A stretch of 64,000 bases of DNA from Novipirellula rosea (GCF_039541335.1 NZ_BAABGA010000029.1:211215-275214), one strand, 5' to 3'. Positions 18,316 through 37,342 are shown, counted from the stretch's first letter. Numbers and translations: made by a program. Notes: a model not told the origin generated them from the sequence alone.

Positions 18316-18319
18316 AATC

Positions 18320-18775: not shown

Positions 18776-18990
18776 AATTCGCCTGCGTCTCGCCTGGATG
18801 TGTCTTCCCCCCCTCTCTGCAAACTGCTTTGCAATCCTCACTCGCACCCCTGTTCGGTTGAATGCGACGGATGATTCTTCGCAAACCGAAGTCGAACATT
18901 TGCCAGTTCTTGCTACAATCCTGGATTGGCTCGTCCTTCACCACCCACGCTGGCGAGCGAATTGACCCATAGACGACGTACTTAAAGCAG

Positions 18991-19506
18991 ATGATGAGCA
19001 AGAAGAAAAAGAAAAACACCCGCATTCCACACAAATTTTTGCCGTGGATTGATGTTCGCAAAAAGTACCGTTTGTCGCACGCTCAAGTCCAAATGGCTCG
19101 CGAATTGGGGATGTCGCCCAAGCGGTTCGACCGGCTCGCGAACACCGAACATAAACCGTGGAAGGTGCCGCTGCCGCAATTTATCGAATCACTGTACGAA
19201 AAGAAGTTTGGCAAGACCGAACCCGATCACGTGCAGTCGATCGAAGACATGGCGGCTGAACATATGGCCCGCCGCGAAGAGCGAAAAGCAGCGAAAGCCG
19301 CCGAAGAGGCTGCCGCAGAGGTCGCCGAAGAGGCTGCCGCAGAGGGCACTGCAGAATCCAGCGAAGACGGCACTGCCGAAGATGCTCGTGAGCCCTCTGG
19401 CCTGCGAAGTGATGCCCGGGGCGAGGCCGACGTTGCCACAAACGACTCGGTCGACACCAATGCCGAGCTCGATAGCGATGCCAAAGAAGCGTCCGAGCCA
19501 TCGTAA
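18991..19506 (+). CDS. Hypothetical protein with Lys-rich N-terminus and acidic Ala/Glu-rich tail
   Basis: KKKKKN N-terminus and an acidic C-terminal half containing an in-frame 24-bp tandem duplication (AAEEAAAEV/AAEEAAAEG). Confidence 0.4.
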   Translation: MMSKKKKKNTRIPHKFLPWIDVRKKYRLSHAQVQMARELGMSPKRFDRLANTEHKPWKVPLPQFIESLYEKKFGKTEPDHVQSIEDMAAEHMARREERKAAKAAEEAAAEVAEEAAAEGTAESSEDGTAEDAREPSGLRSDARGEADVATNDSVDTNAELDSDAKEASEPS

Positions 19507-20809: not shown

Positions 20810-22189
20810 TTAGACGATCTTTGTCTTGCTGCCGGGCACCGGCACGGGATAGCGGCCTTGGGCGTCGGGAATCACGGGGGCGGCATCGGCGAGCGAATGC
20901 ATGACCGAGGTGTCTGCCAATTCGATGCCGCTATTGATGGCATCGTCCCAGCGGACGACTTTGCCGCTGTAAGTCGCCATCCGGCCCATGATCGCCGTCA
21001 TCGTGCTGTGGGCACCGTATTCACCTTCGTTGACCGTTTCACCGCGGCGAAGTGCGGTGAACAAATCGGCGTGTTCCTGCGAGTAACCACGGTTGGCTGA
21101 TCGCGGATCGACATCGCTTTGCCAAATCACGTTACCTCGCGAATCGTGCAGGATCGCGTTGGCGATATCGGCCGACCCCTGCGTGCCGTGGACGAATTCG
21201 CCAATGCTGGTCCGGCAACCTTGCATGTGCCGACATTGGCTCAGCATCCGCGTGCCACTGCCATAGGTATACTCGACCATGTGATGATCAAAGATCTGGC
21301 CGTGGTCGATCCCGTCACGCACTTCGCGGCCACCTTGACCTTGAGCTTCGATCGGATGCGATTTCATCAACCAATTGATCACGTCCAAATTGTGAACGTG
21401 CTGCTCGACGATATGGTCACCGCTGAGCCAGTTGAAGTAGTACCAATTGCGAAGTTGGTATTCGAGTTCGGTTTGCTCGTCGGTTCGCGGACGCACCCAC
21501 ACTCCTGCGCCATTCCAATAAGCTCGTGCAAAGACGATCTCGCCAATCGCACCCTCTTGGATACGCTTGACGCACTCGCGGTAGCGAACTTCGTGACGTC
21601 GCTGCAGTCCAACCGCGACTGCCAAACCTTTTTCGATTGCCATTTGGTTGGTCGCCAACACACGGCGAACCCCGACCGCATCGGTCGCCACCGGCTTTTC
21701 CATGAACACATGCTTGCCCGCCTGGACCGCCGCCTCGAAATGCAGTGGACGAAAACCAGGTGGCGTTGCCAAAATCACGACATCCGCGTCACTGGTCATC
21801 ACATTCTTGTAGCCGTCGAGTCCGACGAAGCGACGATCGTGAAGATCAACTTGCGAGGCGTGTTTGCCTTTGATCGTTCGAAAGGCCGATTGCAGATTGT
21901 TTTCGAACACATCGGCCATTGCGACCAATTTCACGTCACCGCCGTGAGTGCTGAGCGCATCGAGTGTGGCTTCGGTTCCCCGTTTGCCACATCCGACCAA
22001 GCCAATGCGGATCGCATCGCTACCGAAAGCATGGGCTGCGCGAGCGACGCCAAGTTCGGCTCCCGCGATCGCCCCGCCCGCCAAAATGATTCCGCCTCCC
22101 TTCAAGAATCCACGTCGCGATGGAGTCTGCGTCGGCAGGCTGGATTGCGTTTGCGTTTTGGGGGGGCGAGTTGGCATATCAGTGAACAA
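20810..22189 (-). CDS. Gfo/Idh/MocA-family NAD(P)-dependent oxidoreductase with Tat signal
   Basis: SRRGFLKGGGIILAGGAIA twin-arginine signal, then GLVGCGKRG Rossmann. Confidence 0.85.
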   Translation of the reverse strand: MFTDMPTRPPKTQTQSSLPTQTPSRRGFLKGGGIILAGGAIAGAELGVARAAHAFGSDAIRIGLVGCGKRGTEATLDALSTHGGDVKLVAMADVFENNLQSAFRTIKGKHASQVDLHDRRFVGLDGYKNVMTSDADVVILATPPGFRPLHFEAAVQAGKHVFMEKPVATDAVGVRRVLATNQMAIEKGLAVAVGLQRRHEVRYRECVKRIQEGAIGEIVFARAYWNGAGVWVRPRTDEQTELEYQLRNWYYFNWLSGDHIVEQHVHNLDVINWLMKSHPIEAQGQGGREVRDGIDHGQIFDHHMVEYTYGSGTRMLSQCRHMQGCRTSIGEFVHGTQGSADIANAILHDSRGNVIWQSDVDPRSANRGYSQEHADLFTALRRGETVNEGEYGAHSTMTAIMGRMATYSGKVVRWDDAINSGIELADTSVMHSLADAAPVIPDAQGRYPVPVPGSKTKIV

Positions 22190-22291
22190 ACCCTAGGCAG
22201 AAACGGAGCGGCAGGTACGTCGTCGGTGTCATCTAGAATACCCAGCGGTGAGGTTTCCAGCAAACATGACACCCAGAACAACAAATCCCGA

Positions 22292-24517
22292 CTATTTCAT
22301 CAGTTCAATGACGACTTGGTTGACGGTCCCTTGGAGCGGGAAGGGAACCGCGTAAGGCCCGACCGCCCCATTTTCGTCCTGCCCTACCTGCAACCCGTCG
22401 AGCGGTTGTTCGCCCAGCAATCCGTCGATCTTGGACTCAGCGACCTGTTTCTCGCCGATCTTTAGCTGCACGGTTCCTGGTTTACTGACAATCGCGGTCA
22501 CTTGCTGTTTGCCGCTGACACGAGCGTCGGACGTCGTCACCACTCGTTTGCCATTTTGGGTCCATCCAAAGCAGAGTTTTCCGTTTTTCAGATACAGTGA
22601 CCAACCCTGTGACGATCCTCCCTGAGCCACGATCACTCCGTCCCCTTTGACATCGATGTCCGCGGTGACCGCAAACGCTTTGTTCTTGATGTAAGGCGCC
22701 TCGGTCCGATGGAGTTTGTCGCCCATGTTCAGTTTGAAGCGAGTCTGTTTCACGTTCATCGTTGCTCGTTCAGCATGTTTTTGGTTTCCCGGATTCAGCG
22801 GCAACACGTTGGCACGCTCGGCATAGGCTTGCCACATCGCAGCCAGTTTTTGCACGGTCTCGGGCATCTCGCTGCTCAAGTCACGTTGTTCGCTGCGGTC
22901 GTTGGCGATGTTGTAAAGTTCCCACTCGCCCTTCGCTCCCTTCGCCACCAATTTATGGTCGCCGACTCGAACGGCACGGTTTCCTTCGTGTTCCCAGTAG
23001 ATCGCTTCGCGGTCAAATTCATCGCGGGTGTCCGCATCCTCGGCAAACAGTGGGACCAAGCTTTTTCCTTCCATGGGTTTGATTTCCTTGCCATCGTGGT
23101 AGGTGGCGGGATAGGTCGCTCCGGACACATCCACAGCGGTTGCCATCAAGTCGATCAAATGCCCCGGAGTGGTTTCTAGTTCGCCGTGCCGCCGGATCTT
23201 GGCAGGCCAATGAGCGATCAACGGCGTCGAGATACCACCCTCATGAGTCCAGTGCTTGTATTCACGAAACGGCGTGTTGGAAACCGTGGCCCAGCCGCGG
23301 CCGTAACCGATCGCAGTGTCCGCAGGCCCCGCCATCGATCCTTTGCCTGTTCGCATTACAAAGCCATCACGCGATTGTTTCGGTGTCATGTCGGGTTGTA
23401 GATAGTCCGCAGGCAAAGTCGCAAGCGTCGGCTTGTCCGCTCGCTCGCTGCCGACGCCGCCGCGGCCATAGCCTTCGGCGCAGCCCCCGTTGTCTTGCAG
23501 AAAACAAATCAGCGTGTTTTCAAATTGCCCGGTGTCTTTCAGCGATTGAACGATACGTCCAATGCCTTGGTCCATCGAATCGATCATTGCTGCATAGACT
23601 TCCATGTTCCGTTTGTCCCATTCCCAAAACTCGGATTCTTTCCAAGCATCAGGAATCGGCCAATTGACAGTACTGTCGGCGTCGATCAAGCCGAGTTCAA
23701 GCATCCGCTTGTAACGCGCGTCGCGGATCGCATCGTAGCCGGCATCGTACACACCTTTGTACTTGGCAATGTCTTTGTCCAACGCGTGCATCGGCCAATG
23801 CGCGGCCGTAAAGGCAACGTACATAAAGAACGGCTGATCGCCGGATTGAAAATGGTGATCACGAACGAACCGTGCTGCATGATCGGCGATCGCGTCGGTG
23901 TAGTAGTAGGTTTCGCCCGGCCAATCTTCTTTGCCATATTCAGGGTCATTAAATGGCGAGATAAATTCGTTGTCACGCGTCAGTGTGTTGGGGTCAAAAA
24001 AGCTGCCCGCGCCATGAATGGTGCCGTAGAAACGATCAAAGCCTCGCTGGATTGGCCAATTTGCTTTGTCGGCGTCCGTCTTCGGATCAATGGCTTTGGT
24101 GACGTGCCATTTTCCCGACATGTAAGAACGATAGCCCGCGTTTTTGAGGGCTTCGGGAATGGTCACACAGTGTCGGCTCAGTTCACCGCGGTAACCCTCG
24201 TAGCCATGGTCATCCATCATATGGCCGACACCGGCTTGATGAGGATACAGACCGCTCATCAAACTCGCACGCGTCGGACAGCAACGTGCGGTGTTATAAA
24301 ACTGGGTAAAACGAACCCCGTGATCCGCCAAGGAGTCAAGGTTGGGGGTTTTGATTTCGCCACCGTAACAACCAATATCCGAGAATCCCATGTCATCCGA
24401 CAGGATGTAGATGATGTTGGGTCGGTCACCCGTATCCGCTAGCAGTGAATTAAAGTTCGCGAGGATGGTCAGAGAGAGGAAAGCTAAAACGCAATGACGC
24501 AATGAGTTCCGAAGCAT
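22292..24517 (-). CDS. Arylsulfatase-family protein (formylglycine-dependent sulfatase) with C-terminal extra domain
   Basis: CCPTRASLMSG (C-x-P-x-R FGly motif), GKWH. The likely start is Met at ~24517 (MLRNSLRHCVLAFLSLTILA signal peptide). About 250 aa of extra C-terminal domain. Confidence 0.85.
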   Translation of the reverse strand: MLRNSLRHCVLAFLSLTILANFNSLLADTGDRPNIIYILSDDMGFSDIGCYGGEIKTPNLDSLADHGVRFTQFYNTARCCPTRASLMSGLYPHQAGVGHMMDDHGYEGYRGELSRHCVTIPEALKNAGYRSYMSGKWHVTKAIDPKTDADKANWPIQRGFDRFYGTIHGAGSFFDPNTLTRDNEFISPFNDPEYGKEDWPGETYYYTDAIADHAARFVRDHHFQSGDQPFFMYVAFTAAHWPMHALDKDIAKYKGVYDAGYDAIRDARYKRMLELGLIDADSTVNWPIPDAWKESEFWEWDKRNMEVYAAMIDSMDQGIGRIVQSLKDTGQFENTLICFLQDNGGCAEGYGRGGVGSERADKPTLATLPADYLQPDMTPKQSRDGFVMRTGKGSMAGPADTAIGYGRGWATVSNTPFREYKHWTHEGGISTPLIAHWPAKIRRHGELETTPGHLIDLMATAVDVSGATYPATYHDGKEIKPMEGKSLVPLFAEDADTRDEFDREAIYWEHEGNRAVRVGDHKLVAKGAKGEWELYNIANDRSEQRDLSSEMPETVQKLAAMWQAYAERANVLPLNPGNQKHAERATMNVKQTRFKLNMGDKLHRTEAPYIKNKAFAVTADIDVKGDGVIVAQGGSSQGWSLYLKNGKLCFGWTQNGKRVVTTSDARVSGKQQVTAIVSKPGTVQLKIGEKQVAESKIDGLLGEQPLDGLQVGQDENGAVGPYAVPFPLQGTVNQVVIELMK

Positions 24518-24619
24518 AATGAGATTGCTGTTGGGGGGGAGTTTTGGGGGGACGGTTTTCGGCACAGTCGCGATGCTGAATGTAGTGCAAGTATACACAA
24601 AGTCAAAACAGCGAGCCCG

Positions 24620-24710
24620 GGCGACGTAGCTAATCTGCCCAGCGAAACTCGGCAAAACTTGCGAGCGAGGGCGTTATGCGGCCCGGAACTCTTGGCAAGT
24701 TTCGCTGCCG
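24620..24710. repeat. REP-like palindromic intergenic element (family copy 1)
   Basis: AGCGAAACTCGGCAAAACTTGCGAGCG ... GGAACTCTTGGCAAGTTTCGCTGCC. It shares the CGAAACTC/GAGTTTCG arm structure with copies at 40793, 54751 and 55340. Confidence 0.5.
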
Positions 24711-24727: not shown

Positions 24728-27700
24728 CTACTGCGGCGGAGTGATATTCTGGTTGCCTGGATCGATCGCCGACTCCATTTGCTGGTAGTTTTTCAGCATC
24801 GCTTCGAGCTGTGATCTCAGCTTCTCTAAGTCACGGCCATTTTCAAGCGACTCGCTCAAAATTGGACGCAGCCATTCTTGCATCAAATGAAATTGGCCTT
24901 TGACAAGATCCGCTAACACGCGTGGCACCTTGTGCTGGACCAAGACTTTTTGGTCCGGCGGCGATGCCGCCTGCTGTTCGCTGATTCGCTCCAGATTTTT
25001 GCTGGTTGCGTGCAGCGTTTCGGAAAGCTGTGATGCCGACGCGGTCACACTTTGACGCAGCAGGTCGATCCGTGCGTCCATTCGCTCCTCGGATCCATCA
25101 CTGCCCACCGCGATCGCACGTGAGATGACTTGGCGGATCGATTCGAGCCCGTCTCGCATCGCCCCGAGTTGACGCATCAACTGGCCCGCTTGGTCTTCGC
25201 TATCCATGCCCTGCATGCGAACGCTTTCGACGAACGCGTATTTGATCGAATCCCAACGCTCTTTCTCTTCCGTCGTCAAAATCCCCATCAACTCTTTGAA
25301 CTTCAGCACATTCGCTTCGTTGTCCGTCGTCAACGTTTGCGCGTCCTGTTCGTAATTGCTGATGATCAGCGTTTGCAATTCCTTCTCGTTCATCACCCCC
25401 GCGACTCGCTCGGCGATGCGGTTCATGTTTCGGTAGCTACCTTGCAACTTGAACGGTGGTTCGGTTCGATAGGAATCGGCTTGCGCGGCACTGCGAATGT
25501 AGGCACGATTGACCTTCAGCACGACATCGCGAACTCGCAGTAATTTACGCACGACCTCGTACATCTCGCGGACTTGATCCATCGACAAATTGCTTTCCAG
25601 CTCAATGCCTTCGATCGAATCACGCTCGGCCGCGCGGATGATCGCACGCGAATCTTCTACGGGAACCGTCGACAGCGGCGCAAGTGTGCGGTTGCTGGTC
25701 AAGCAGTTTTCCAAGTAGCTCATTTCGAACGCGTCGGCCGAATCGCCAATGATCTCGCCCAGGTTATAAACATCGGCGCGGTTGGAAAGCATGTCCGGAA
25801 TCTGGAAGCGATCACCGCTCTCGGTATACGGGTTGCCCGCCATCACGACGGCGACACGTCGGCCGCGCAGATCGTACGTGCGAGTCTTGCCATTGCGAAC
25901 GCCTTCGATCTTACGCGTCGCGTCACACAACGAAATAAATTTTTGTAGCAGTTCGGGGTGCGTGTGCTGGATATCATCCAGGTACAACATCACGTTGTCA
26001 CCCATTTCGAGTGCCAAATTGAGCCGTTCGATCTCTTCACGCGCCGCCGCATTCGGAGCTTCCGCAGGATCAAGCGACGTCACACCGTGGCCAATCGCTG
26101 GACCATTGATCTTCATAAAGACAATGCCAAGCCGGTTGGCGATGTATTCCATCAACGTCGTCTTGCCGTACCCCGGTGGCGAGATCAGCAGCAGCAATCC
26201 CATCCGATCGGTTCGCTTGTCGGCACCCGCCGAGCCCATTTGTTTCGCTAGATTATCGCCAATCAGCGGCAAGTAGACTTCGTCCAACAATCGGTTACGG
26301 ACAAAGCTGGTCAGCACTCGCGGCTTGAACTCTTCTAACCGCATATCGTCACGGGCCGCATCAACCAATCGCGTTTTCGTTTCGTGCAATCGCTCGAACC
26401 GAGGAACGACGTCACCGCGATAGCCGCGAACGCGGTCAAGCAGTTCGTGATAGTGCAGCGTCATGACGCCTTTTTCGATCCGCGGATGAGCCCCCGCCAT
26501 CGAGTCGAGTCGTTTTGCGACCGCTGCGTCGGCAACCGACATCGACTCGGTTCCGCCACATTGGATTAGCCAGGCAAGTTCATCCAGATAAAACGAAGCC
26601 GGATCCAGATCGTCCGGATTTGCATGCGATTGCAAATAGGCCTCGGCCCAATTACGAGCCAAGATAAAGCTCGCGACGGGATCGGATTGATTGTTTTTGA
26701 GCGAACTTTCAAGCAACTTTTGACGATCCGATTCTGGCAACGTTTCCGCGAACGCGTGATGCAGATCGGCAGCCCGTTTGCTGGCGGTGTTTTGCCGTCC
26801 TTTGGCGACCAATTGATCAAACAAATAGTCCGCGATCCGCTGCTCATTCACAGCGGGCGGAAAAATCGGTGCCCAGTGCGATCGGTCGATAGACGCAAGT
26901 TCGGCAAGCCGTTGACGAAACTGAATCGCAGGTTTGGCGTGCGGATAGGCTTTGGCAAGTTTTGCAAATCCACCGATCCACTCGGTCATCGACTTGTTCT
27001 GTTTGGCGTCGAGAATCTTGGTGAACCACAACAACGACGCGGCTCGAACCGATGGCGAGTGACGCAGTAAACCAATCGTTTGATTCATTTCCAACAGCGT
27101 TGACAGAATCCGCACTGCGTCCCCATCGTGCACGCCTTTGGAATAGCCTTCGCTAAACCGACCCGCCAGCTGAGTTTGCATCCATTTCAAGTCGATCGAT
27201 TTGGGATCCATCGGGTTCGCCGACGACGCAGTGAGCGTTTCAAACAAATCGACGGCCAGATACTCACTGCGGTAAACGTCCGCGTTTTCGCTGATCAGTT
27301 CTTGGTTCCAAAGATCTTTGGCCGCCGTGAGCGCCTCGTCGCGAAGCGGCTCAAAAAACTGAGTGCCCGTCAAATGCAAACAAATCTCGCCGCCGCGAAG
27401 CACGGTGGTCAGATCCAATGGCTGCGTATTGACGGCAAATCGGTGTTGGCCCAGCCAAATTACGTCGCCGCCGTCTTCGTAAAGATCCTGGCGGTCTTTG
27501 AGCTGACGTGATGCATCTTCGCGAATCGTTTTCAACCGGCTCTGCAGGTCTTCCACCCGGACAGCGTCGTCGAGGTCACCGAGTTGCTCGATGATGTCGC
27601 GTACCTTTTCGACCATCAAGTCGCCAGCGAAATAGGCTGCGATCTCGTCGCTTGATTCCATCGATCGGACACGAGAATCGATGCCTTTGAGGATCCGATC

Positions 27701-29986
27701 CGCGGCCGATGACAACGACTCGGCCCGTCGGTTGCGTTTTTCAGTCAGCTGGACTTTTCGCGATTCGAACGCTGCATAAACATCTTCGCGTCGCTGAGCC
27801 AATTGGACGATAAACTCGTCGAATTCAGCGAACCGTCCCTCTAGCTCCTCCAATTGGACCATCACCTTGGTCAAGTATTCATCACACTTGGCAACCGAGT
27901 CGCTGACGTCCAAATAGCCAGCGGTGGTTTGCTGAAGCAGTTTCAATTGGGATGCAAATTCGGCTTGCCCTTCGACGCTGACCAATTCGCTAACGCGTGC
28001 CTTTAGCGAACTGCGGACGCGGTTCAGCGAAGCAAAAACGTTACCGATAGCGTCGATGATTTCCGTTCGCTTAGTCGAGTCGTCAATTCGCAGATTACTA
28101 ACGGTCTCGGTTAGCAGTTCCAACTGACTGGCTGATTCATCAATCGTCTCGCCTAGCTTCTTTGCCTCGGCCACCGTTTGCACTTGGCCCACAGCCTCGC
28201 CCGCATCGGTCACTTGGTCCTGGTACGGATCAAGAGCGCCGGGAGTCAGCAGGAAATCGACACAGCGGCGACTGAGCCGTTCGGCACGTTCGGCGGTGGT
28301 CTTTTCGAGTGTTTCGACCAAATCAAGATCAACGTAACGCAGTTCTTTCAGGGCGAGGGCATGCCCACGTTGTTGTCGCAATTTGGCCAGGAAATCAACG
28401 AAGTTTTCGATCGATTCGAACCGTCCACGCTCGATCTCTTTGACGAGGGCTTCGACATTCTGCTGCACTTGATTGGTTTGCGCCAGCGTGTCGCGACGAA
28501 CGCGAACCACCTTCTCAAACTCTTCGACTGCGGCCGAGGCGGCTTCGCGGATTTTTTGCAGTGGCTCGGAAAGCTTTTCGGTCTCGGGTTTGTCGATCCA
28601 GAAATAGCTGTCTAAAACGTCCGATGCTTTTTTAACCAGGTCGACGTAGAGCCCGTCGTAGCTGTCGTCCTTATCGATCAATTGCAGCAGTTCGCTGCAT
28701 TCGGCCATCCCGCGGACAATTTCTTTGTTGCCGATTTTGAACAGCAGCGAATCGGTTTGATTTTCCGGAACGTGGTCGGCACTGGTGAACGGAGTCTGCC
28801 AGACCTGGATCGCATGGTGTTTTTGGGGTTGCTCGTGGGTCTTGAAGCAAACCATCTCGCCAGCATCGAACAGAGTTTGTCCGTTGCAAACCAATGGGGT
28901 GTCAACCGATTGCCGAATCAGGTTATAGCGAAGCTGGACGTAGGTGCCCGATTCATTGTTGTAGAACAAGTACAGAAAGTCTTCGCCGTTAGCCGCTGCG
29001 ACCGTGCGTTGATAACGCATGTCGCCCAGCCCATGGTCAAACCGTTTGCATTGACCCGTTTGCAAGTAGTAGCCGCCTGGAAAAATCAATCCTTGGTCGC
29101 CAGGCAACATTACACAAGCATGTTCGATTTCATCGAGCCGAATCGCTTGCTGGATTTTACCATTAAAGACGATATAGCGAGTCTTGTCTTCCTGGTACGG
29201 ACGCACTTTCATCAGCACAAGATTGCCAACGATGGCGTAATGAATCTCGGCGTCATCAAGTTTCTGGTCGTGATGGTCAACCGGTTCGGCATAAATGCCT
29301 TCGCCCGAATCGGTGTTGTTTTCGATCTTGACGGTCAAATCGCCGCCGACGGTTTCGATAAAAACGCGGTCTTCAATCGAGATGTGAGGGTGAGCACCAT
29401 AGTGATGCTGGTCGCGAGTGGTGCGTTTCCAAGTGAATTCATGTTGCTGCGGATCACGAACCTCATGCTCGCTGCGGTTATCGAGATATTCGATCGAATT
29501 CGGAGTCACTCGCCATTTAAAACTCTTGATATCGCGATGGCTCTTGCCGACTCGAAACACCATATGCAGCATCGGCCCGACACGAAAAAAACGGGCGAAT
29601 GCGGTCCCTTTGTAGAACCGGTACAGTTCGTGAAAGTCGTTGGTGAAACGCTTGTCACCGATCAGCTCGAGTGATTCTTGGTGGAATTGATTGTCGGCGA
29701 AACGATAAACCGAGAAGACATCGGCGAGTTCGATTTCGGTTTTCAATCCGAATTGAACGTTATAGCCAAACAGAAACTTGTCGCCGACCGAGATCAGGTC
29801 ACGAGGCACACAGTTGTGATCGGTCGTTACACGTTCGGTGGTAATCAAACGCGTTTCGATATTGCCAAAGACCGCCGCCCGTTCTTCGTTCAGCTTGGCA
29901 AGACGCGCACGCAAGTCCGACGACGCATCGCGAAGCCGATTGCGAAGCACCTCATACGTTCCGGCAGCAAGTTGGGTGTCGGTCAT
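24728..29986 (-). CDS. Giant (1752 aa) coiled-coil protein with a single AAA+ (AAA_5/MoxR-like) ATPase domain
   Basis: Walker A LLLISPPGYGKTTL (coding nt ~26150-26190), Walker B VMLYLDD, sensor VVMAGNP. There is an N-terminal ~450-aa beta-rich region, about 400 aa of heptad-like coiled coil, and a C-terminal coiled coil. No other recognisable catalytic motifs. Confidence 0.8.
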   Translation of the reverse strand: MTDTQLAAGTYEVLRNRLRDASSDLRARLAKLNEERAAVFGNIETRLITTERVTTDHNCVPRDLISVGDKFLFGYNVQFGLKTEIELADVFSVYRFADNQFHQESLELIGDKRFTNDFHELYRFYKGTAFARFFRVGPMLHMVFRVGKSHRDIKSFKWRVTPNSIEYLDNRSEHEVRDPQQHEFTWKRTTRDQHHYGAHPHISIEDRVFIETVGGDLTVKIENNTDSGEGIYAEPVDHHDQKLDDAEIHYAIVGNLVLMKVRPYQEDKTRYIVFNGKIQQAIRLDEIEHACVMLPGDQGLIFPGGYYLQTGQCKRFDHGLGDMRYQRTVAAANGEDFLYLFYNNESGTYVQLRYNLIRQSVDTPLVCNGQTLFDAGEMVCFKTHEQPQKHHAIQVWQTPFTSADHVPENQTDSLLFKIGNKEIVRGMAECSELLQLIDKDDSYDGLYVDLVKKASDVLDSYFWIDKPETEKLSEPLQKIREAASAAVEEFEKVVRVRRDTLAQTNQVQQNVEALVKEIERGRFESIENFVDFLAKLRQQRGHALALKELRYVDLDLVETLEKTTAERAERLSRRCVDFLLTPGALDPYQDQVTDAGEAVGQVQTVAEAKKLGETIDESASQLELLTETVSNLRIDDSTKRTEIIDAIGNVFASLNRVRSSLKARVSELVSVEGQAEFASQLKLLQQTTAGYLDVSDSVAKCDEYLTKVMVQLEELEGRFAEFDEFIVQLAQRREDVYAAFESRKVQLTEKRNRRAESLSSAADRILKGIDSRVRSMESSDEIAAYFAGDLMVEKVRDIIEQLGDLDDAVRVEDLQSRLKTIREDASRQLKDRQDLYEDGGDVIWLGQHRFAVNTQPLDLTTVLRGGEICLHLTGTQFFEPLRDEALTAAKDLWNQELISENADVYRSEYLAVDLFETLTASSANPMDPKSIDLKWMQTQLAGRFSEGYSKGVHDGDAVRILSTLLEMNQTIGLLRHSPSVRAASLLWFTKILDAKQNKSMTEWIGGFAKLAKAYPHAKPAIQFRQRLAELASIDRSHWAPIFPPAVNEQRIADYLFDQLVAKGRQNTASKRAADLHHAFAETLPESDRQKLLESSLKNNQSDPVASFILARNWAEAYLQSHANPDDLDPASFYLDELAWLIQCGGTESMSVADAAVAKRLDSMAGAHPRIEKGVMTLHYHELLDRVRGYRGDVVPRFERLHETKTRLVDAARDDMRLEEFKPRVLTSFVRNRLLDEVYLPLIGDNLAKQMGSAGADKRTDRMGLLLLISPPGYGKTTLMEYIANRLGIVFMKINGPAIGHGVTSLDPAEAPNAAAREEIERLNLALEMGDNVMLYLDDIQHTHPELLQKFISLCDATRKIEGVRNGKTRTYDLRGRRVAVVMAGNPYTESGDRFQIPDMLSNRADVYNLGEIIGDSADAFEMSYLENCLTSNRTLAPLSTVPVEDSRAIIRAAERDSIEGIELESNLSMDQVREMYEVVRKLLRVRDVVLKVNRAYIRSAAQADSYRTEPPFKLQGSYRNMNRIAERVAGVMNEKELQTLIISNYEQDAQTLTTDNEANVLKFKELMGILTTEEKERWDSIKYAFVESVRMQGMDSEDQAGQLMRQLGAMRDGLESIRQVISRAIAVGSDGSEERMDARIDLLRQSVTASASQLSETLHATSKNLERISEQQAASPPDQKVLVQHKVPRVLADLVKGQFHLMQEWLRPILSESLENGRDLEKLRSQLEAMLKNYQQMESAIDPGNQNITPPQ

Positions 29987-30039
29987 AGCTGAAGATCAAG
30001 AAGTCATGGATGAGTTCGGGGTATTGTGTTCGGTCTGTG

Positions 30040-30960
30040 GTTCCAGTTCGTCCGGCCGGATGTGGGTTTAGGCCCAAGGGGCCGGCTTGTTGTAGGCCCA
30101 AAGGGCCGGTGCTATGTCAGCCCAGGGCAACGCCCTGGGTTTGGTCATGATCCATCCGTACTAGTCCCAAGGGGACGGTCCTAATCCCAGACATAACGCT
30201 CGTCGATCGTAATGCCATGTCGGCGACAAAGTTCTCGAAACTCCTCTTTAAAAGTCATGTTCCGATGATGCATTTCCTGATTGGCGATGTAAGCCTTTAC
30301 CTCTGCAATGTTCGACTCGCTAACCGAAAACGCTCCGTATCCTCCCTGCCACGAAAATTGCGACAACGCTGTCGCTTGGCGTTTCACCCATTTGCTCGTC
30401 TCTGTTTTCGCCTGTTGAACGACATCTTTCATGGCAAAGTTTCGACTTAACAGAAACAATGCGTGGATATGATCCTCGACACCCCCAATAATGATGGCTG
30501 GCGAGTCAACGTTGTCACGAAGAATCGTCGCCATGTAGGCGTATAGCTCGTCGCAAAGGCTACGTGGTTTTAGGACGGGGTGTCGGTGCTTGGTAGAGAA
30601 CACGAGATGGATCGCAACTTTGGATAACGATTGAGGCATTGTTTCATCTCCAATGGGTTAGCGCCGCCCCGTTGGGGCTATCGTGCATTTTATTCCCGGC
30701 GAACCCAGGGCGTTGCCCTGGGCTGACATGGGTCCGTCCCGTTGGGACTACGAATCGTCCCGTTGGGACTTTCAATTTTCCTGAACACTTCAAAACCTGG
30801 GGCTTACGCCGCCAGGCTACTTTGTTTCGCCGCGATGCGGCTGGACCATCCAGGGCGTTGCCCTGGGCTGACATGGGCCCGTCCCGTTGGGACTACGAAT
30901 CGTCCCGTTGGGACTTTCAAAGCCGTTGGGACTACGCCTTGCCTTTCCTTGTTTTGCTGT
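30040..30960 (-). mobile_element. IS200/IS605-like RAYT (REP-associated tyrosine transposase) with flanking inverted REP arrays
   Basis: The CDS at 30181-30639 has HuH (HIHALF) and a conserved Tyr (KAYIANQ). REPs: CCCAGGGCAACGCCCTGGG at 30120-30138 on one side, and its inverted copy CCCAGGGCGTTGCCCTGGGCTGACATGGG at 30704 and 30850 on the other. GTCCCGTTGGGAC palindromes occur at 30736, 30757, 30880 and 30902, and GGCCCAAGGGGCCGG at 30070 and 30095. Local GC is visibly lower than the flanks. Confidence 0.8.
30181..30639 (-). CDS. RAYT / IS200-like Y1 transposase (TnpA)
   Basis: 152 aa, MPQSLSKVAIHLVFSTKHRHPVL...DHIHALFLL, typical IS200/RAYT N-terminus and HuH. Confidence 0.8.
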   Translation of the reverse strand: MPQSLSKVAIHLVFSTKHRHPVLKPRSLCDELYAYMATILRDNVDSPAIIIGGVEDHIHALFLLSRNFAMKDVVQQAKTETSKWVKRQATALSQFSWQGGYGAFSVSESNIAEVKAYIANQEMHHRNMTFKEEFRELCRRHGITIDERYVWD

Positions 30961-33070
30961 CCGCAGGGATCGCGGGGGTTAAGACTCGACTTGCTTTTTG
31001 ATCGGCGATGTTGGCGGTGCCGACGACGCCTAACAAACTGGTCAATTGCGAACGAACATCATCGGTCTTCGCCAACCCCATCATCTTCGCGATCAGTGCC
31101 GCGATCGACAAATCTTTCACTGAGTCGGCGTCCAGATTGAACTGCTTCATCAGTTCGTCTAGCTGATCCCGAAAATAGTCGGCGTTGCCATCGAAGAACG
31201 TGTCCTTGATGTCGGTCGCCACGCGGCTGTTGTAGACAAATCGGTCGATCGCTTTGCCGCCCTTGACCGCATTGGTAATCTGCTCGAAGAACTCGCCATC
31301 GCCACCGACAATGTCGATTCGTGCGGCTCGCAGGGCTTCGCCCATGACGCCTGCTTGGCTTTCGGCAATCCCGCGCTGCGCATCGATCGCTGCGATCTCG
31401 ACATCCTTTTCTTTCTCGAGCTTTAACTTGAACTCTTCGTGTTCCTTCCCGACGCTGTCGAGCTGTTTCATTGCTTCGGCTTTCTCGGTGATCCCGGTTG
31501 CCTCGCTGTGGTACTTCTCGCGTGACACGTTGGCTTCGGCCAGACCTTGTTTTTCGATCGCTTGGGCCTTGGCTTCGATTCCCTTGGCTTCGGCGATGGC
31601 TTTCTTTTCGAGCACGATCGCTTCGGCACTGCCTTCTTTTTCCAAGCTGGTTGCTTTCGCTTCTTGCACGGTCGCTTCGGCCAATCCCGATGCAGCCGCG
31701 GTCGCCGCGTCCGCTTCGGCCAGCATTTTCTTTGCCGCCGTGTCTTTCTCGGCAGCATCGCGACGTGCTTCGGCTTCGATGCGGATCTTTTCTGCGAGCA
31801 GCATGCTCGAATCCTTTTCCGCTTGCGCCTGTTTCGTGACGCGAATCAATTCTTCTTCGCCTCTCATCTCGGCCGCAGTCACTTGGACTTTCTTCAGTCG
31901 GTCGGCAGCCGCGATCTCTTCGGTGTCTTTGATTCGTTCTTTCTCTTCGACCACGGCTCGCTCGACCGCAACACGTTCGCGGATCACCTCTTGGATGTTG
32001 CGTTTCTCGATCTCGATCGCCTTCTCTTTCTCAACCTCGGCGACCCCGACCACTCGCAATCGCTCGGTCATTTCCAAGTCGCGGTCACGATTGACACGCT
32101 CCAGCTCGACCGCGTCGGTCTTTTCCTTGTTCCGCTGTGCGACCAAAATTTGACGCGACTTGTTTTCTTCGGCAACGCCCAGTTCCTCTTCGGTCGCAAT
32201 CCGAGCTCGCTCGGCTTCGAGCCGTTGCTCTTCACGCACCTTGGCGGCCGAGGCTTGTTCTCGCGAAGTGATTTCAGCAATCTCGCGTTTCTGTTTTTCG
32301 ACAGCTTCGACACGTTGACGTTCGAGTTCCAAGATGGTTTCTTCCGCTTCGACGTCCTGCTTCTTAAGCGTTTTTTCTTTGTCGCGAGTAAACTGGTTCT
32401 CTTTGACCTTTTCCGACGAGGTTAATTCGGTGATCTTTTTGATTCCCTCGGCGTCCAGGATATTGTTGGGACTGAGCATTTCCAGCGGCGTTTGTTCGAG
32501 ATAATCGATCGCCGCGTCGTCCAGACGGTAACCGTTCAAATCGGTACCGATCACCTTCAAAATTTCTTCTTTGAACTTGTCACGTTGATCGTACAGGTCG
32601 ACAAAGTCGAACTGCTTACCGACCGTTTTCAGAGCTTCACTGAATTTTGCGTCAAACAATTCGCGAAGCGTTTCCAGTTCGCTACACCGCTTTGCACCAA
32701 TCGACTGAGCCACCTCACGCATTTCTTCGTCGGTTTTATCGACTCGAATAAAGAATGCCACTTTGATGTCGGCTCGAATGTTGTCTTTACAGATCAAACC
32801 TTCGCTGCCTTGACGGTGGATTTCGAAGCTTTTGAGTGTCAAGTCCATGAACTCGTAGCGATGAAACATCGGCACAATGAATTTGCCGCCTGCGGTGGTC
32901 ACGTCGAGTCCACCGAGTCCGGATTTAACGATTGCGCGGTCGGGACCAACGACGATGTAGTACTGTTTGAACGTCACCAGCAATGCGATGAACGCGATCA
33001 ACACGAAGTACAACATTAACATTGGACCCGAGGTCCAATTGATTTCCGAGATCAATAACAACGAGGTCAC
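30932..33070 (-). CDS. Flotillin-like SPFH/band-7 protein
   Basis: N-terminal TM, SPFH domain, and a long EA-repeat coiled coil (EAEARRDAAEKDTAAKK, AEAKGIEAKAQAIEKQG) typical of flotillin FloT/YqiK. Confidence 0.9.
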   Translation of the reverse strand: MTSLLLISEINWTSGPMLMLYFVLIAFIALLVTFKQYYIVVGPDRAIVKSGLGGLDVTTAGGKFIVPMFHRYEFMDLTLKSFEIHRQGSEGLICKDNIRADIKVAFFIRVDKTDEEMREVAQSIGAKRCSELETLRELFDAKFSEALKTVGKQFDFVDLYDQRDKFKEEILKVIGTDLNGYRLDDAAIDYLEQTPLEMLSPNNILDAEGIKKITELTSSEKVKENQFTRDKEKTLKKQDVEAEETILELERQRVEAVEKQKREIAEITSREQASAAKVREEQRLEAERARIATEEELGVAEENKSRQILVAQRNKEKTDAVELERVNRDRDLEMTERLRVVGVAEVEKEKAIEIEKRNIQEVIRERVAVERAVVEEKERIKDTEEIAAADRLKKVQVTAAEMRGEEELIRVTKQAQAEKDSSMLLAEKIRIEAEARRDAAEKDTAAKKMLAEADAATAAASGLAEATVQEAKATSLEKEGSAEAIVLEKKAIAEAKGIEAKAQAIEKQGLAEANVSREKYHSEATGITEKAEAMKQLDSVGKEHEEFKLKLEKEKDVEIAAIDAQRGIAESQAGVMGEALRAARIDIVGGDGEFFEQITNAVKGGKAIDRFVYNSRVATDIKDTFFDGNADYFRDQLDELMKQFNLDADSVKDLSIAALIAKMMGLAKTDDVRSQLTSLLGVVGTANIADQKASRVLTPAIPADSKTRKGKA

Positions 33071-33756
33071 GATGCGGTCTCCGATGGCAGATTAGTGACG
33101 ATGTAGATGCGTTTCTGTTTTTCAAATCCGACGATGCGAACCTCGGTCCCTTTGGGGATATGAGCTCCGTCGGTACGGACATTCAGTAGTAGTGGGGCTG
33201 CGTTGGTGCGAAATTTGGCTTGTCCAAACTCCGGTGTCGCTTCGCTGGTAGTGATTTCACAGGTGCCGCCGACCATGCGACTTTCGTCGTACGAGGGCGG
33301 ATCGACAAAGTAACCTAGCATCGGCTGCGTGATCGCCTTGGTAATTCCGGTGGCAATCACAAAATTGCGGATCGACAACAGGATGCTGGGCAGCCAATCC
33401 GGGGAATAACGCGCCGAATCAAAGCTGTGCCAAAGCCAGTACGAGATTCCCCAGAACGCGACCGAAAAGATCCCGCCCCATAGCACGATGGGAATCCGTC
33501 CAAAATTGGTCCAGCGAACTGCCGCCCCGCCCAGTCCCTGTAACAAGTCGGCATCGACCGAGATCATCTCGCCGTCCGGCAGATCGACGCCGACATCGGG
33601 AACATCCAAATCGACGTCAGGAACGTCAAAACCGAAATCAACCAACCCAATAATCGCCAGGATCGTATAGACAACCAACAAACAAATCAGGATGGATGCC
33701 GGCCACAAGGGGCCGACAAACATGCGGTTGGCGAGATCGATAATCGAGTCCGACAC
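33067..33756 (-). CDS. NfeD-like membrane protein (YqiJ/YuaF family)
   Basis: Multi-TM N-terminus plus a C-terminal OB-fold-like soluble domain (GTEVRIVGFEKQKRIYIV). Overlaps the flotillin start by 4 bp. Confidence 0.7.
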   Translation of the reverse strand: MSDSIIDLANRMFVGPLWPASILICLLVVYTILAIIGLVDFGFDVPDVDLDVPDVGVDLPDGEMISVDADLLQGLGGAAVRWTNFGRIPIVLWGGIFSVAFWGISYWLWHSFDSARYSPDWLPSILLSIRNFVIATGITKAITQPMLGYFVDPPSYDESRMVGGTCEITTSEATPEFGQAKFRTNAAPLLLNVRTDGAHIPKGTEVRIVGFEKQKRIYIVTNLPSETAS

Positions 33757-34019: not shown

Positions 34020-34081
34020 ACAAAAATTGGCTCGTGGGACCGATGACAGGCTGGAAACCAATCCCACACTGAAAATTGATT

Positions 34082-37000
34082 ATGATGGACGCTCCTGCCG
34101 ACCTTCGGTCTAACCCGAACGCCATCCCTCCGACCACCGATGCCAAAATCTGGGCATCCGTAAACATCATGATGATATCCCGCCTTGCCGCTTTCCTGAT
34201 CGTCGCCTCTTTTGCCAGTTCCACGCTGTCGCTGCAGGCAGAAATGCTGCGGCGAGCGGCACCCTTGGGCGATCAACTCAAAGCGGCCGATCCGCACTAT
34301 CTGGCCGAGCAAGTCCGATTGCGAGGTGATGCCCATCGAGGTGCGCTGGTGTTCTTTAAGTCGGCCGCTGGATGTGTGAACTGTCACAGCAGCGGTGACC
34401 AAGCTTCGCCGCTTGGACCGAATCTTGCCGAACTCGGATCCGATTTGACCGACGAATACCTAATCGAGTCGCTGTTGTTTCCGTCGCGTCATATCCGCAA
34501 AGGTTTTGAAACCGTTTCGCTGCTGACGGTGGACGGACAAGTGTATGTCGGCTTGATCGCTGGCGAGGATGACAAACAGATTCGCATGCGATTGTCGAGC
34601 GATCTGACTCACGACTTTGTGGTGACTCAGGAAGAAGTCGAAGAACGCAATGTAAATTCCAAGTCGTTGATGCCCGATGGTTTGATCGGATCGCTAAAAG
34701 ATCAACGCGAGTTCCTTGATCTTGCTTGCTATGTGATCGAAGTGGCTCGCGGGGGCAAAACGCGAGCATCACAGCTGCAACCCTCGCCTGAACAACTGCG
34801 GGTTGTCGATGACTCGATCGACTTGGACCACGCGGGGATTATCAAAGGATTGGGCCGACGCGACTTCACCGCCGGCGAGGCGATCTATCACGGCTACTGT
34901 TTCGATTGCCATGGCAGCGACGGTAATACCCCGTCACTTTCGACAGCGCGAGCGTTTGGAACTCAGAAGCTAAAGTTTGGTGCCGACCCGTACCAGATGT
35001 TTATGACGTTGACCAAGGGCAATGGATTGATGGCGTCGATGTCTCACTTGACGCCAAAAGAACGTTACCAAGTCGTGCACTACATCCGCGAAGCGTTCAT
35101 GAAAGGGAACAATCCCGATTACGTCAAAGTCACGCCCGAACTGCTGAAATCGCTGCCCACCGGCACCAAGGACGGCACCGAGATCGAGAACGTTCAACGT
35201 GACTTTGGCCCCGCGTTGGCATCTCAACTTCGCCGCGATTTCCCCAGCGTGCTGAACATCCGACTTGGTGACGCGACGATCGCCTACAACTTGCACGCGA
35301 TGGACCAAGCGGATGTGTGGAGCGGTGGATTTCTTGACTTGAGCGAAACACAACATGTCCGTCCTCGCGGCGAAGGCACTGCAAACCCTGACGGGGAATC
35401 GATCCAGGGGCTCGCCGGATGGCACTGGGGACACGGTGGCACCCTCGATTATTCACGCAAAGGCCTGCTGCCACGCGGGCCCATGCCCGCAGAGTGGATG
35501 GACTACCACGGCCACTACCTCCACAACGATCGGGTGACACTCAGCTATGCAATCGATGGTCGCGAAATACTCGAGTCGCCGCAGGAACTGGGCAACCGTG
35601 CCGGAAGCGAGGTGATTGTTCACGAGTTGAAAATTGGCCCCGGTGGTGAACTGATCCTCGCCATTGCCGAGAACGCGGATAACGCAACCGCCATCGTCCG
35701 AGGCGATCACCGCGATTTGACGCCCCACTCTGATGACAAGAATCGCTTGGTACTACGAATTCCTGCGGACACGCGGTCGCGGACGATACAAGTCTATCGC
35801 ACCGAAGGGCAAGATCGCTCTTCGCTACAGAAGCTTGCGGATTCATTCACGCCGACGATGGATTTAGCGTCACTGACCCAAGGAGGCTCGATGTTGTGGG
35901 CGGATGAACTGGAAACGGTTGGCTACCTGGGGCTCGAAAAGGGGGGCTATGCACTGGATACACTCGCGATCCCCGAATCCACGCCTTGGAACACTTGGTT
36001 CCGCACCTCGGCGCTCGATTTCTTTCCCGATGGGCGGATGGCATTGGCAACCCATGGCGGCGATATTTGGATCGTGTCGGGCATCGACGATGACTTGCTA
36101 AATCTTCGCTGGAAACGATTCGCCGCGGGGCTTTACGAACCGTTTGGAGTCAAGATTGTCGATGGAAAAATCTATGTCACCTGCAAGGATCGATTGACTC
36201 GGCTGCACGATCAAGACGGCAATGGTGAGGCGGATTTCTACGAGAGTTTTTGTGCCGACATCGATGTGTCGACCAACTTTCATGCATTCAATTTTGATTT
36301 GCAAACCGACGACGAAGGCAACTTCTACTACGCAAAAAGTGGACATGGCGCCGATTTCTCGCTGCCGGGCGCCGTGTTCAAAATCTCGCCTGATGGCAAA
36401 CATCGTGAAGTCTTGTCGACCGGCTTTCGCACGCCCAATGGGCTGGGCAGTATGCCAGGCGGTCGGATCACCGCGAGCGATAACCAGGGCCAATGGACGC
36501 CCGCCTCGAAAATCAACTTGCTAAAACCAGGCGGCTTCTATGGCTGGGTACCGACCTATTCGATCCCTGGCAAATGGGAGCCCGATGGTGGCAAAATTGA
36601 CATCACCAAACTGGTGCCTCCGACGTCGTTTGACCGGCCCTTGGTTTATATGACGCAAGAGTTCGACAATTCATCAGGAGGGCAAATTTGGGTAGAGGAT
36701 TCACGGTTTGGTCCGCTCGCAGGCCATCTGCTGCACACCAGTTTCGGTCGCGGATGGATGTCGTATTTGATGATCCAAGATGTGGGCGACCTCAGCCAAG
36801 CGGCGATCGTGAATCTGCCGTTTGATTTTTCGACCGGGATCATGCGAGGGCGTGTGAATCCCGCCGACGGCCAAGTCTATGCGACCGGCCTGCAAGGCTG
36901 GAACGGTGGCGGCCGGATTGGCTTGGAAGAAAAGGGACTGCAACGCCTTCGCTACACTGGACGTCCCTATCCCATGGTCACGGACGCATCGGTACAAGCC

Positions 37001-37342
37001 GACGGCTTGACCCTGACCTTCAATTTCCAGCTGGACCCAGACGTGGCGACGGATGTGCGTTCGTACAATGCGACTCAGTGGAATTATCACTGGAGTCGTA
37101 ATTATGGATCGGATCAATTTTCTGTGAAAACCGACAAAGCTGGTGTCGACGAAGTTGCAATCGAGTCCGCCACGGTCGACAACAGTGGTTCGGTGGTCAA
37201 GCTGCAGATCGATGGCATGCAGCCCGCCGATCAATTGCATCTGATTTTGCATGTGCGCGATCGCAATGGAGATGCTTTTGAGGAAGAAATCTACTGGACT
37301 ATCAACCGTGTCCCCGAAGTGGAAAACAATCGTGCGAATTAA
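34082..37342 (+). CDS. PVC-type heme-binding CxxCH protein with putative membrane-bound dehydrogenase beta-propeller domain
   Basis: Two heme c sites (CVNCH, CFDCH). A large beta-propeller-like region with repeated GxxDG motifs. The architecture is common in Planctomycetes/Verrucomicrobia. The track ORF starts at TTG 34076. Confidence 0.7.
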   Translation: MMDAPADLRSNPNAIPPTTDAKIWASVNIMMISRLAAFLIVASFASSTLSLQAEMLRRAAPLGDQLKAADPHYLAEQVRLRGDAHRGALVFFKSAAGCVNCHSSGDQASPLGPNLAELGSDLTDEYLIESLLFPSRHIRKGFETVSLLTVDGQVYVGLIAGEDDKQIRMRLSSDLTHDFVVTQEEVEERNVNSKSLMPDGLIGSLKDQREFLDLACYVIEVARGGKTRASQLQPSPEQLRVVDDSIDLDHAGIIKGLGRRDFTAGEAIYHGYCFDCHGSDGNTPSLSTARAFGTQKLKFGADPYQMFMTLTKGNGLMASMSHLTPKERYQVVHYIREAFMKGNNPDYVKVTPELLKSLPTGTKDGTEIENVQRDFGPALASQLRRDFPSVLNIRLGDATIAYNLHAMDQADVWSGGFLDLSETQHVRPRGEGTANPDGESIQGLAGWHWGHGGTLDYSRKGLLPRGPMPAEWMDYHGHYLHNDRVTLSYAIDGREILESPQELGNRAGSEVIVHELKIGPGGELILAIAENADNATAIVRGDHRDLTPHSDDKNRLVLRIPADTRSRTIQVYRTEGQDRSSLQKLADSFTPTMDLASLTQGGSMLWADELETVGYLGLEKGGYALDTLAIPESTPWNTWFRTSALDFFPDGRMALATHGGDIWIVSGIDDDLLNLRWKRFAAGLYEPFGVKIVDGKIYVTCKDRLTRLHDQDGNGEADFYESFCADIDVSTNFHAFNFDLQTDDEGNFYYAKSGHGADFSLPGAVFKISPDGKHREVLSTGFRTPNGLGSMPGGRITASDNQGQWTPASKINLLKPGGFYGWVPTYSIPGKWEPDGGKIDITKLVPPTSFDRPLVYMTQEFDNSSGGQIWVEDSRFGPLAGHLLHTSFGRGWMSYLMIQDVGDLSQAAIVNLPFDFSTGIMRGRVNPADGQVYATGLQGWNGGGRIGLEEKGLQRLRYTGRPYPMVTDASVQADGLTLTFNFQLDPDVATDVRSYNATQWNYHWSRNYGSDQFSVKTDKAGVDEVAIESATVDNSGSVVKLQIDGMQPADQLHLILHVRDRNGDAFEEEIYWTINRVPEVENNRAN

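Follow-up and report, generated by a model that had tools for sequence, protein, structure and literature searches.

A PspA-less operon of a YqiJ-like protein, a long flotillin and a giant AAA+ ATPase in Novipirellula rosea

A stretch of 64,000 nucleotides from Novipirellula rosea (GCF_039541335.1, NZ_BAABGA010000029.1:211215-275214; the window) contains three adjacent and co-directional genes, which encode in this order a YqiJ/YuaF-type NfeD-like membrane protein, a long flotillin and a giant AAA+ ATPase (Table 1). The locus is very probably the abbreviated, PspA-less form of a widely conserved operon known from the in silico work of Ravi et al. (2024, mSystems, PMC11237479; preprint 2020), who reported a full CesT/Tir-PspA form and an abbreviated form. 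The three-gene operon is kept in at least eight bacterial phyla. The long flotillin and the ATPase are almost never apart, and their linkage is near-obligate in both directions. Remodelling of a membrane scaffold by the ATPase is proposed tentatively, from gene linkage and domain analogy; identity and scaffold remodelling taken together are held with moderate confidence to be the best explanation of the locus. The open reading frames (ORFs), the strand and the ATPase motifs given in an earlier note on this DNA were confirmed, as was the 4-bp overlap between the GTG start of the flotillin gene and the stop of the nfeD-like gene.

The linkage of the flotillin and the ATPase was analyzed from both sides. 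In the forward test the ATPase was used to select 80 genome loci, which belong to Planctomycetota, Verrucomicrobiota, Bacteroidota, Desulfobacterota and Clostridia; 62 of these loci have at least 3 kb of upstream DNA. At 59 of these 62 loci a long flotillin is encoded directly upstream of the ATPase on the same strand, and these flotillins are full-length homologues with identities of ~35-87%. The reverse test comprised 80 metagenome loci chosen by flotillin similarity alone, and all of those with at least 3 kb of downstream DNA (45/45) have the ATPase downstream on the same strand. Searches with a hidden Markov model placed the YqiJ-like gene directly upstream of the flotillin gene at 53/58 genome loci and 66/66 metagenome loci. 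Clustering of the neighboring ORFs showed that only the ~700-aa flotillin and the ~227-aa upstream protein are conserved in every lineage. These counts establish the three genes as a true module, as the earlier note had suspected. The same order is annotated on a Streptomyces plasmid (Actinomycetota) as a hypothetical protein, a "flotillin family protein" and a "DNA repair ATPase", and the Pseudomonadota are represented by the trio in matching order on pQBR103 of P. fluorescens. Homologues also occur in Deinococcus, Proteus, Vibrio, Halomonas and Photobacterium. The loci without an adjacent flotillin are that of N. galeiformis, considered further below, and two others (L030 and L050). The earlier note had allowed that the adjacency might be a coincidence, possibly created by the insertion of a transposase gene, if homologues of the ATPase were never found next to flotillin elsewhere. 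The mobile element between the genes and the N. galeiformis locus would fit such a coincidence. However, the order is found without the transposase in the great majority of genome and metagenome loci from many phyla, which refutes this explanation and leaves it a negligible probability.

The junction between the flotillin and the ATPase genes is the variable part of the module. The spacers span 2 to ~2360 bp across the loci examined, and many Bacteroidota loci have one to four small, mutually unrelated genes interposed, encoding DMP19-like, DUF3997, lipoprotein, DUF3592 and other products without a Pfam match (for instance L025:8618-9704, L031:6992-8158, L076:7841-9741, L041:8525-9949 and L042:9232-9915). 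Since the interposed genes are variable and the spacers differ widely in length, the junction tolerates insertions, as it does in many lineages, and it looks like a recurrent insertion slot. In the window the spacer is 945 bp, enlarged by a gene for a REP-associated tyrosine transposase (RAYT; REP, repetitive extragenic palindromic), and falls within the range of the family. The RAYT is absent from the corresponding spacer in Crateriforma and other Pirellulaceae loci; this spacer measures 132 bp in Crateriforma conspicua, where the trio is complete, and ~100-200 bp in the others. The RAYT and its REP repeats are a lineage-specific insertion into the flotillin-ATPase spacer, outside the conserved module.

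The transposase matches Y1_Tnp (E 3.5e-21) and scores 52.8 bits against the NCBIfam IS200 model, narrowly below the cut-off of 55; a HUH-like HIH motif is visible in its translation. Pattern search detected six copies of a REP-like hairpin (AGTCCCAACGGGACG) flanking the transposase gene (0.13 expected by chance). All six are located within 30163-30915, and no further copies were detected elsewhere in the window. The upstream set consists of one degenerate copy and two AGTCCCAACGGGACG doublets, with a CATGTCAGCCCAGGGCAACGCCCTGG repeat after each doublet. Both types of repeat recur inverted 3' of the transposase gene, as a REP-like copy at 30163-30177 (plus strand) and as CCAGGGCGTTGCCCTGGGCTGACAT. 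The transposase thus fits a RAYT, with REP-like hairpins both 5' and 3' of its gene and the 3' copy in inverted orientation. The RAYT noticed earlier between the flotillin and the ATPase was thereby corroborated. A scan of the spacer revealed no convincing terminator, and a promoter scan of the spacer and the operon gave nothing above background with the sigma-70 consensus, which may not apply to Planctomycetes.

More than 4269 homologues of the ATPase were retrieved, corresponding to 926 cluster representatives at 50% identity, and an alignment of the diverse family showed that the protein is conserved over its full length across phyla. The closest matches are from Pirellulaceae near Novipirellula. 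Identities of 66-87% within Pirellulaceae are high and therefore suggest vertical descent. The module was found in none of the phage records and in 13 of 72,556 plasmid records, mostly very large replicons. Outside Bacteroidota no conserved extra partners were detected, and the upstream genes are unrelated housekeeping genes. This distribution suggests a vertical, housekeeping-like inheritance. It also bears on the alternative that the trio is an anti-phage or conflict system, in which invasion would be sensed by the giant coiled-coil NTPase and the flotillin would have its effect at the membrane. Defence systems often contain large NTPases with coiled coils, the coiled-coil region of the ATPase matches the SMC-like coiled coil of LmuB weakly (E 2e-4), small variable genes including a DMP19-like one are interposed in some Bacteroidota, and one copy of the module is on the megaplasmid pQBR103. 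However, a search of PADLOC-DB 2.0 gave no match for the flotillin or the NfeD-like protein and, for the ATPase, only LmuB and mad8 (E 8e-3); the module is absent from phage records and rare on plasmids, its neighbors are housekeeping genes rather than defence islands, its descent appears vertical, and no paper linking SPFH or NfeD proteins to anti-phage activity was found. A defence function is thus quite improbable, and the caution of the earlier note on this point was justified.

Comparison with the published operon demonstrated orthology of the genes and the same gene order. Both comprise a YqiJ/YuaF-type protein with three transmembrane (TM) segments, a flotillin with SPFH domain and coiled coil, and an ATPase with propeller, coiled coil and AAA+ core. 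Fifteen Bacteroidota loci have the full form, in which a divergent XRE-type helix-turn-helix (HTH) regulator, CesT_Tir_1 (E 7e-56), PspA_IM30 (E 4e-42), the YqiJ-like protein, the flotillin, sometimes variable genes, and the ATPase are encoded. The Flavobacteriia loci reproduce the published layout including the divergent regulator, and the context of Dokdonia donghaensis (ANH61663.1) in the supplementary table of PMC11237479 has the same gene order. At two further Bacteroidota loci, which lack the HTH regulator and the chaperone, PspA is encoded close to the trio, in one case (L034) downstream on the opposite strand. On pQBR103, a well-studied megaplasmid of P. fluorescens SBW25 (NC_009444.1 85112-97641; L085:1-12187), a PspA/polyamine-type operon with genes for PspA, a rhomboid protease, DUF2491, DUF350, DUF1190 and a glutathionylspermidine synthase is followed directly by the trio, which is annotated as a YqiJ-sized hypothetical protein, an SPFH protein and a "DNA repair ATPase". 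Two of the PspA operon classes distinguished by Ravi et al. are joined in this cluster.

The Novipirellula window differs from these loci. A tblastn search with the Flavobacteriia proteins gave no significant match to PspA, CesT/Tir or the HTH regulator in the window, which in turn has the RAYT and REP repeats in the spacer. The locus was assigned to the abbreviated form because the CesT/Tir-PspA dyad is absent from the window. PspA was likewise not found in the examined loci of Planctomycetota, Verrucomicrobiota, Clostridia and Desulfobacterota, and abbreviated operons without PspA are reported to be widespread (PMC11237479). Ravi et al. found the ATPase "in some cases", whereas it is nearly always present with the long-flotillin subfamily here. 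The ATPase is unmentioned in a paper on P. aeruginosa SPFH proteins and in a 2009 paper on SPFH evolution. The module, which the earlier note named as a candidate undescribed one, is already known; the near-obligate linkage of the flotillin and the ATPase, the accessory occurrence of PspA, which was found at 17 Bacteroidota loci and on pQBR103, and the insertion-tolerant junction are new. Apart from the RAYT in its spacer, the locus is an ordinary member that adds a planctomycete example and firmer linkage statistics.

The family alignment of the YqiJ-like protein reads as TM1, an acidic D-rich linker, TM2, TM3 and a C-terminal beta (OB-like) domain. Matches to Pfam are weak for NfeD (E 1.8e-3) and for YqiJ_N (E 0.013); YqiJ_N matches 11 of the 27 members of the family, the best at E 3.6e-8. 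A single-sequence search of the PDB gave no match. However, comparison of the family profile with E. coli YqiJ using hhalign showed a full-length match with a probability of 96.6% (E 6e-10), and the match to the structure of the B. subtilis YuaF soluble domain (2k14) is weak (E 0.026). The NfeD assignment, weak in Pfam, is therefore supported by the comparison with YqiJ.

The flotillin consists of an N-terminal hydrophobic anchor, an SPFH/band-7 domain, a long coiled coil rich in E, A and K, and a conserved C-terminal block. Band_7 matches residues 40-182 (E 6e-11); the same model is passed at E 0.01 by only four of the 28 members of the long-flotillin subfamily. The flotillin profile aligns with E. 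coli YqiK over residues 23-429, covering the SPFH domain and the coiled coil (hhalign, E 1.3e-41). With the YqiJ match, this bears out the pair of YqiJ/YqiK type named in the earlier note. Against the PDB, the single sequence had no match and the profile matched QmcA only, weakly. The NCBIfam FloT equivalog was rejected for this protein, at 23.8 bits against a cut-off of 700. The C-terminal block (HEEF...IDIVGG..FF, residues ~535-700) is strongly conserved, with invariant columns at H544, E545, E546, F547, G589, G590, F594 and F595, and is not aligned with YqiK, than which the flotillin is ~160 aa longer. On these comparisons the flotillin is a YqiK homologue in a distinct, longer subfamily, and its C-terminal block, possibly restricted to flotillins linked to the ATPase, is a candidate surface for docking. 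The E. coli YqiJ-YqiK and B. subtilis YuaF-FloT pairs are homologous to the pair described here and also have the NfeD protein first. However, the flotillin of the window has the extra C-terminal block and fails the FloT equivalog, and E. coli K-12 has no ATPase-like gene after yqiK, where sibD/ibsD are found instead.

Profile searches identified the ATPase as a member of Pfam DUF3686 (PF12458), which matches residues 24-462 at E 1e-191 (637.8 bits against a cut-off of 25). DUF7902 (PF25472; residues 584-666, E 9.7e-28) also passes its threshold, as does Pfam AAA (PF00004; E 3.4e-6), of which only the P-loop part is matched (profile positions 1-38 of 131). Single-sequence search of the PDB gave generic P-loop matches only. 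The AlphaFold2 (AF2) model of residues 1-470 has a mean predicted local distance difference test (pLDDT) of 92.3 and a predicted template modelling score (pTM) of 0.89. It shows a long helix at residues 3-40 followed by an all-beta region, which lies inside DUF3686 and for which the PDB matches listed by Foldseek are mainly beta-propellers (DCAF1, PALB2, Vps18, CyRPA and others, E ~1e-7 to 1e-5). Structure prediction of the N-terminus, recommended in the earlier note, thus yielded a predicted beta-propeller. The middle of the ATPase has low Pro and Gly and high E, K, R and Q contents, with heptad-like segments at 598-718, 742-796 and 808-844 as detected with a crude script.

The AF2 model of residues 820-1752 has an overall pLDDT of 84.8 and mostly exceeds 90 through a small beta domain, which contains a conserved GxHRFxVN motif, and an all-alpha domain of ~360 aa. 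For these two domains no solved relative was evident, and all 50 PDB fold matches listed are AAA+ proteins. The C-terminal tail is modelled as helices with a pLDDT of 50-68 and has a heptad-like segment at 1583-1675 by the same kind of crude estimate; Bacteroidota homologues are shorter, with ~1620-1660 aa. No TM segment or protease domain was detected in the ATPase in its translation or by Pfam. The description of the ATPase core as embedded in coiled coil therefore stands in part: heptad-like segments are present at ~600-845 and in the tail, but the protein is not mostly coiled coil, the propeller and the alpha domain being globular parts of other kinds.

The ATPase motifs of the AAA+ core are intact, with Walker A PPGYGKTT at 1270-1277, Walker B VMLYLDD at 1332-1338 and AGNP at 1383-1386, which are invariant across the family. 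Sensor-1 is N1385, and the core further has an invariant R1403, a lid and an invariant QGSYRNM block at 1515-1521. Walker A, Walker B, the sensor-1 Asn and the conserved Arg were invariant in alignments of 24-46 diverse sequences. In the AF2 model a beta-hairpin (1359-1372) precedes the sensor-1 strand and is read as the pre-sensor-1 hairpin of the HCLR/MoxR/MCM superclade. With Foldseek the core was matched best by NorQ, RuvB and CbbQ (E 3e-5 to 1e-4), followed by Lon, Msp1, ClpX, Skd3 and others. These closest folds are distant, with identities of 14-20% and TM-scores of 0.4-0.5 on the target, and NorQ, CbbQ and RuvB have no counterpart to the greater part of the ~1450 aa that flank the AAA+ module.

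Membership in the MoxR family could not be demonstrated, because the AAA_5 score of 21.2 bits falls short of the cut-off (22) and no conserved VWA partner is nearby. The "MoxR/AAA_5-like" label of the earlier note is thus approximate only, with AAA_5 below its threshold and NorQ/CbbQ and RuvB as the best folds (E ~3e-5). The classical AAA clade (Vps4, p97, FtsH) was rejected because of the partial match to PF00004, the pre-sensor-1 hairpin and the NorQ, RuvB and CbbQ folds at the top of the matches.

The databases point to another function, that of a DNA-repair or chromosome ATPase functionally unrelated to its neighbors. Pfam labels DUF3686 as "ATPase involved in DNA repair", the NCBI product name is "DNA repair ATPase", and there are weak P-loop matches to RuvB. 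However, the scores of the RuvB models (21-24 bits) are far below the cut-offs (282-299) and the matches cover the P-loop only, on which grounds a functional DNA repair ATPase of the RuvB or SbcC/Rad50-like type was rejected. Pfam detected no DNA-binding, nuclease or other DNA-related domain in the ATPase, no literature support was found for the name "DNA repair ATPase", DUF3686 or PF12458, and the near-obligate linkage is to membrane proteins. Thus, a role in DNA repair is highly improbable, and the database name is probably misleading. The assignment to a well-characterized repair or partition ATPase, which the earlier note had named as a possible outcome of profile searches, did not occur.

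Taken together, the linkage and the domain composition suggest how the module could work. The flotillin and the YqiJ-like protein would assemble into an oligomeric scaffold at the inner membrane, on its cytoplasmic side, like the solved SPFH-NfeD and HflK/C assemblies. The ATPase would dock on this scaffold through its propeller and coiled coil, possibly at the C-terminal block of the flotillin, the docking site being a guess. As an oligomeric AAA+ motor, it would act on the scaffold or its clients at the expense of ATP, by assembly, disassembly or remodelling; the AAA+ fold, which is modelled confidently, matches hexameric remodelling motors (NorQ, CbbQ, RuvB, Lon and Msp1). Scaffold remodelling could be part of membrane maintenance or of a response to envelope stress; the PspA genes that accompany the trio at 17 Bacteroidota loci and on pQBR103 speak for a link to membrane stress. 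In Bacteroidota and in a number of Proteobacteria the trio would be transcribed with PspA, which is ESCRT-III-like, and the CesT/Tir chaperone, whereas any PspA here would be encoded elsewhere. Because the ATPase is tightly linked with the flotillin and not with PspA, the flotillin scaffold is favored as its main partner, and PspA is regarded as an accessory of particular lineages. It is also possible, and is put forward with reserve, that the long flotillin, YqiJ and the DUF3686 ATPase are the obligate parts of a single physical machine, in which a hexameric motor, docked by its propeller and coiled coil on the C-terminal block of the flotillin, builds or dismantles flotillin cages independently of PspA.

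Several points weigh against scaffold remodelling as the function of the module. PspA is missing from the window. The mechanism is drawn from gene linkage and domain analogy only, and no experimental study of any member of the module was found in the literature. The Walker B motif of the ATPase ends in DD, not DE; DnaA, an ATP hydrolyser, also has a DD Walker B, and by this analogy the motif is compatible with ATP hydrolysis. No solved motor is a close relative of the AAA+ core, whose substrate class is therefore unreadable from homology. The RAYT and the REP hairpins between the flotillin and the ATPase could uncouple their transcription. In N. galeiformis, the closest named relative (L003:6710-13259, SJPT01000005.1), the ATPase is 87% identical, has no adjacent flotillin/NfeD pair and is preceded by an EcKL-type kinase gene; co-transcription is thus not obligatory.

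The occurrence of the trio with PspA/IM30 in Bacteroidota and on pQBR103 suggests ATP-driven remodelling of a polymer, as in ESCRT-III/Vps4 and PspA/Vipp1. The ATPase might accordingly be mainly a remodeller of PspA and an analogue of Vps4, with the flotillin and YqiJ only as a platform and with PspA encoded elsewhere in N. rosea. PspA and CesT/Tir are encoded in the operon at 15-17 Bacteroidota loci and PspA in the pQBR103 cluster, and Ravi et al. (PMC11237479) frame the operon in the same way, proposing ATP-dependent sub-membrane dynamics or remodelling and the assembly of membrane-linked complexes. However, the two-way linkage is with the flotillin (59/62; 45/45), PspA is absent from all the Planctomycetota, Verrucomicrobiota, Clostridia and Desulfobacterota loci examined as well as from the window, and the core, MoxR/RuvB-like with a pre-sensor-1 hairpin, lies outside the classical Vps4 clade. 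PspA as the main substrate is thus unlikely, and the reading centered on the flotillin refines the published view centered on PspA.

An SPFH cage that encloses an AAA+ machine is established for HflK/C-FtsH. The trio resembles this system in that an SPFH scaffold may be coupled to an AAA+ protein at the inner membrane. By this precedent the trio could serve in quality control of membrane proteins, with the flotillin cage confining clients that the AAA+ protein unfolds or extracts. The fold matches include Lon, Msp1, ClpX and Skd3, and the propeller and the coiled coil could recruit clients. In contrast to FtsH, the ATPase is soluble and free of a protease domain, belongs to another AAA+ lineage, with the pre-sensor-1 hairpin, and has coiled coils and a propeller, so that it falls outside that family. 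No partner protease is conserved nearby, and the argument is one of analogy. Quality control of this kind appears improbable.

Remodelling of the flotillin scaffold, if true, would make the ATPase a bacterial ATP-driven regulator of membrane microdomains. To our knowledge, no active remodeller of an SPFH scaffold has been demonstrated; we know of no energy-consuming partner that controls the assembly of a bacterial flotillin, and the role of flotillin is debated. The operon offers an experimental handle on flotillin dynamics and on the link to PspA/ESCRT-III-like membrane repair. Hosts with the module include genetically tractable ones, namely Flavobacterium, Streptomyces, P. fluorescens with pQBR103, Proteus and Vibrio.

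Table 1. Features of the three-gene locus, in coordinates of the window.
Feature	Position	Strand	Evidence
YqiJ/YuaF-type NfeD-like membrane protein gene, 229 aa	33067-33756	minus	ORF and profile matches
Long flotillin gene, 712 aa, GTG start	30932-33070	minus	ORF, Band_7, YqiK profile
REP-like palindromic repeats 5' of the RAYT	30640-30931	minus	Sequence and pattern search
RAYT, IS200/Y1 family, 152 aa	30181-30639	minus	Y1_Tnp, REP hairpins
Spacer 3' of the RAYT, then ATPase leader	29987-30180	minus	Inverted REP-like and CCAGGGCGTTGCCCTGGGCTGACAT repeats
Giant AAA+ ATPase gene, 1752 aa	24728-29986	minus	ORF, DUF3686, DUF7902 and single AAA+ core
Predicted beta-propeller domain, ATPase residues 46-397, inside DUF3686	28796-29851	minus	AF2 and Foldseek
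Coiled-coil-rich middle, ATPase residues 471-835, including DUF7902	27482-28576	minus	Composition and heptads
Predicted small beta domain (~842-880) and globular all-alpha domain (~886-1250)	26237-27481	minus	AF2 model
AAA+ module, ATPase residues ~1251-1560	25307-26236	minus	Alignment, AF2, Foldseek
Predicted C-terminal helical tail, ATPase residues 1561-1752	24731-25306	minus	AF2, heptads

The genes on either side of the module are of other kinds. A 1088-aa protein with a CxxCH heme-binding domain (TIGR02603), cytochrome c, DUF6797 and a glucose/sorbosone-dehydrogenase-like region is encoded divergently from the nfeD-like gene (34076-37342, plus strand). It is of the large type typical of planctomycetes and is unrelated to the module in other genomes. 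The products of the region 3' of the ATPase gene (20810-24655, minus strand) are a sulfatase of 787 aa and an oxidoreductase of the GFO/IDH/MocA type, the latter possibly with a twin-arginine translocation (TAT) signal. In several Pirellulaceae loci the ATPase gene has a sulfatase gene in its vicinity (cluster C6), with neither strand nor position constant; this recurrence most likely reflects the abundance of sulfatases in these genomes rather than a functional link. Farther away, a 762-aa ORF (7297-9585, plus strand) precedes a 2129-aa polyketide-synthase-like ORF (9592-15981, plus strand), in which KS, AT, DH and ER-type domains were detected by Pfam on the identical contig L001. Tad/TadE pilus-type genes, mapped from the same contig to ~17200-19050, lie between the polyketide-synthase-like ORF and the module.

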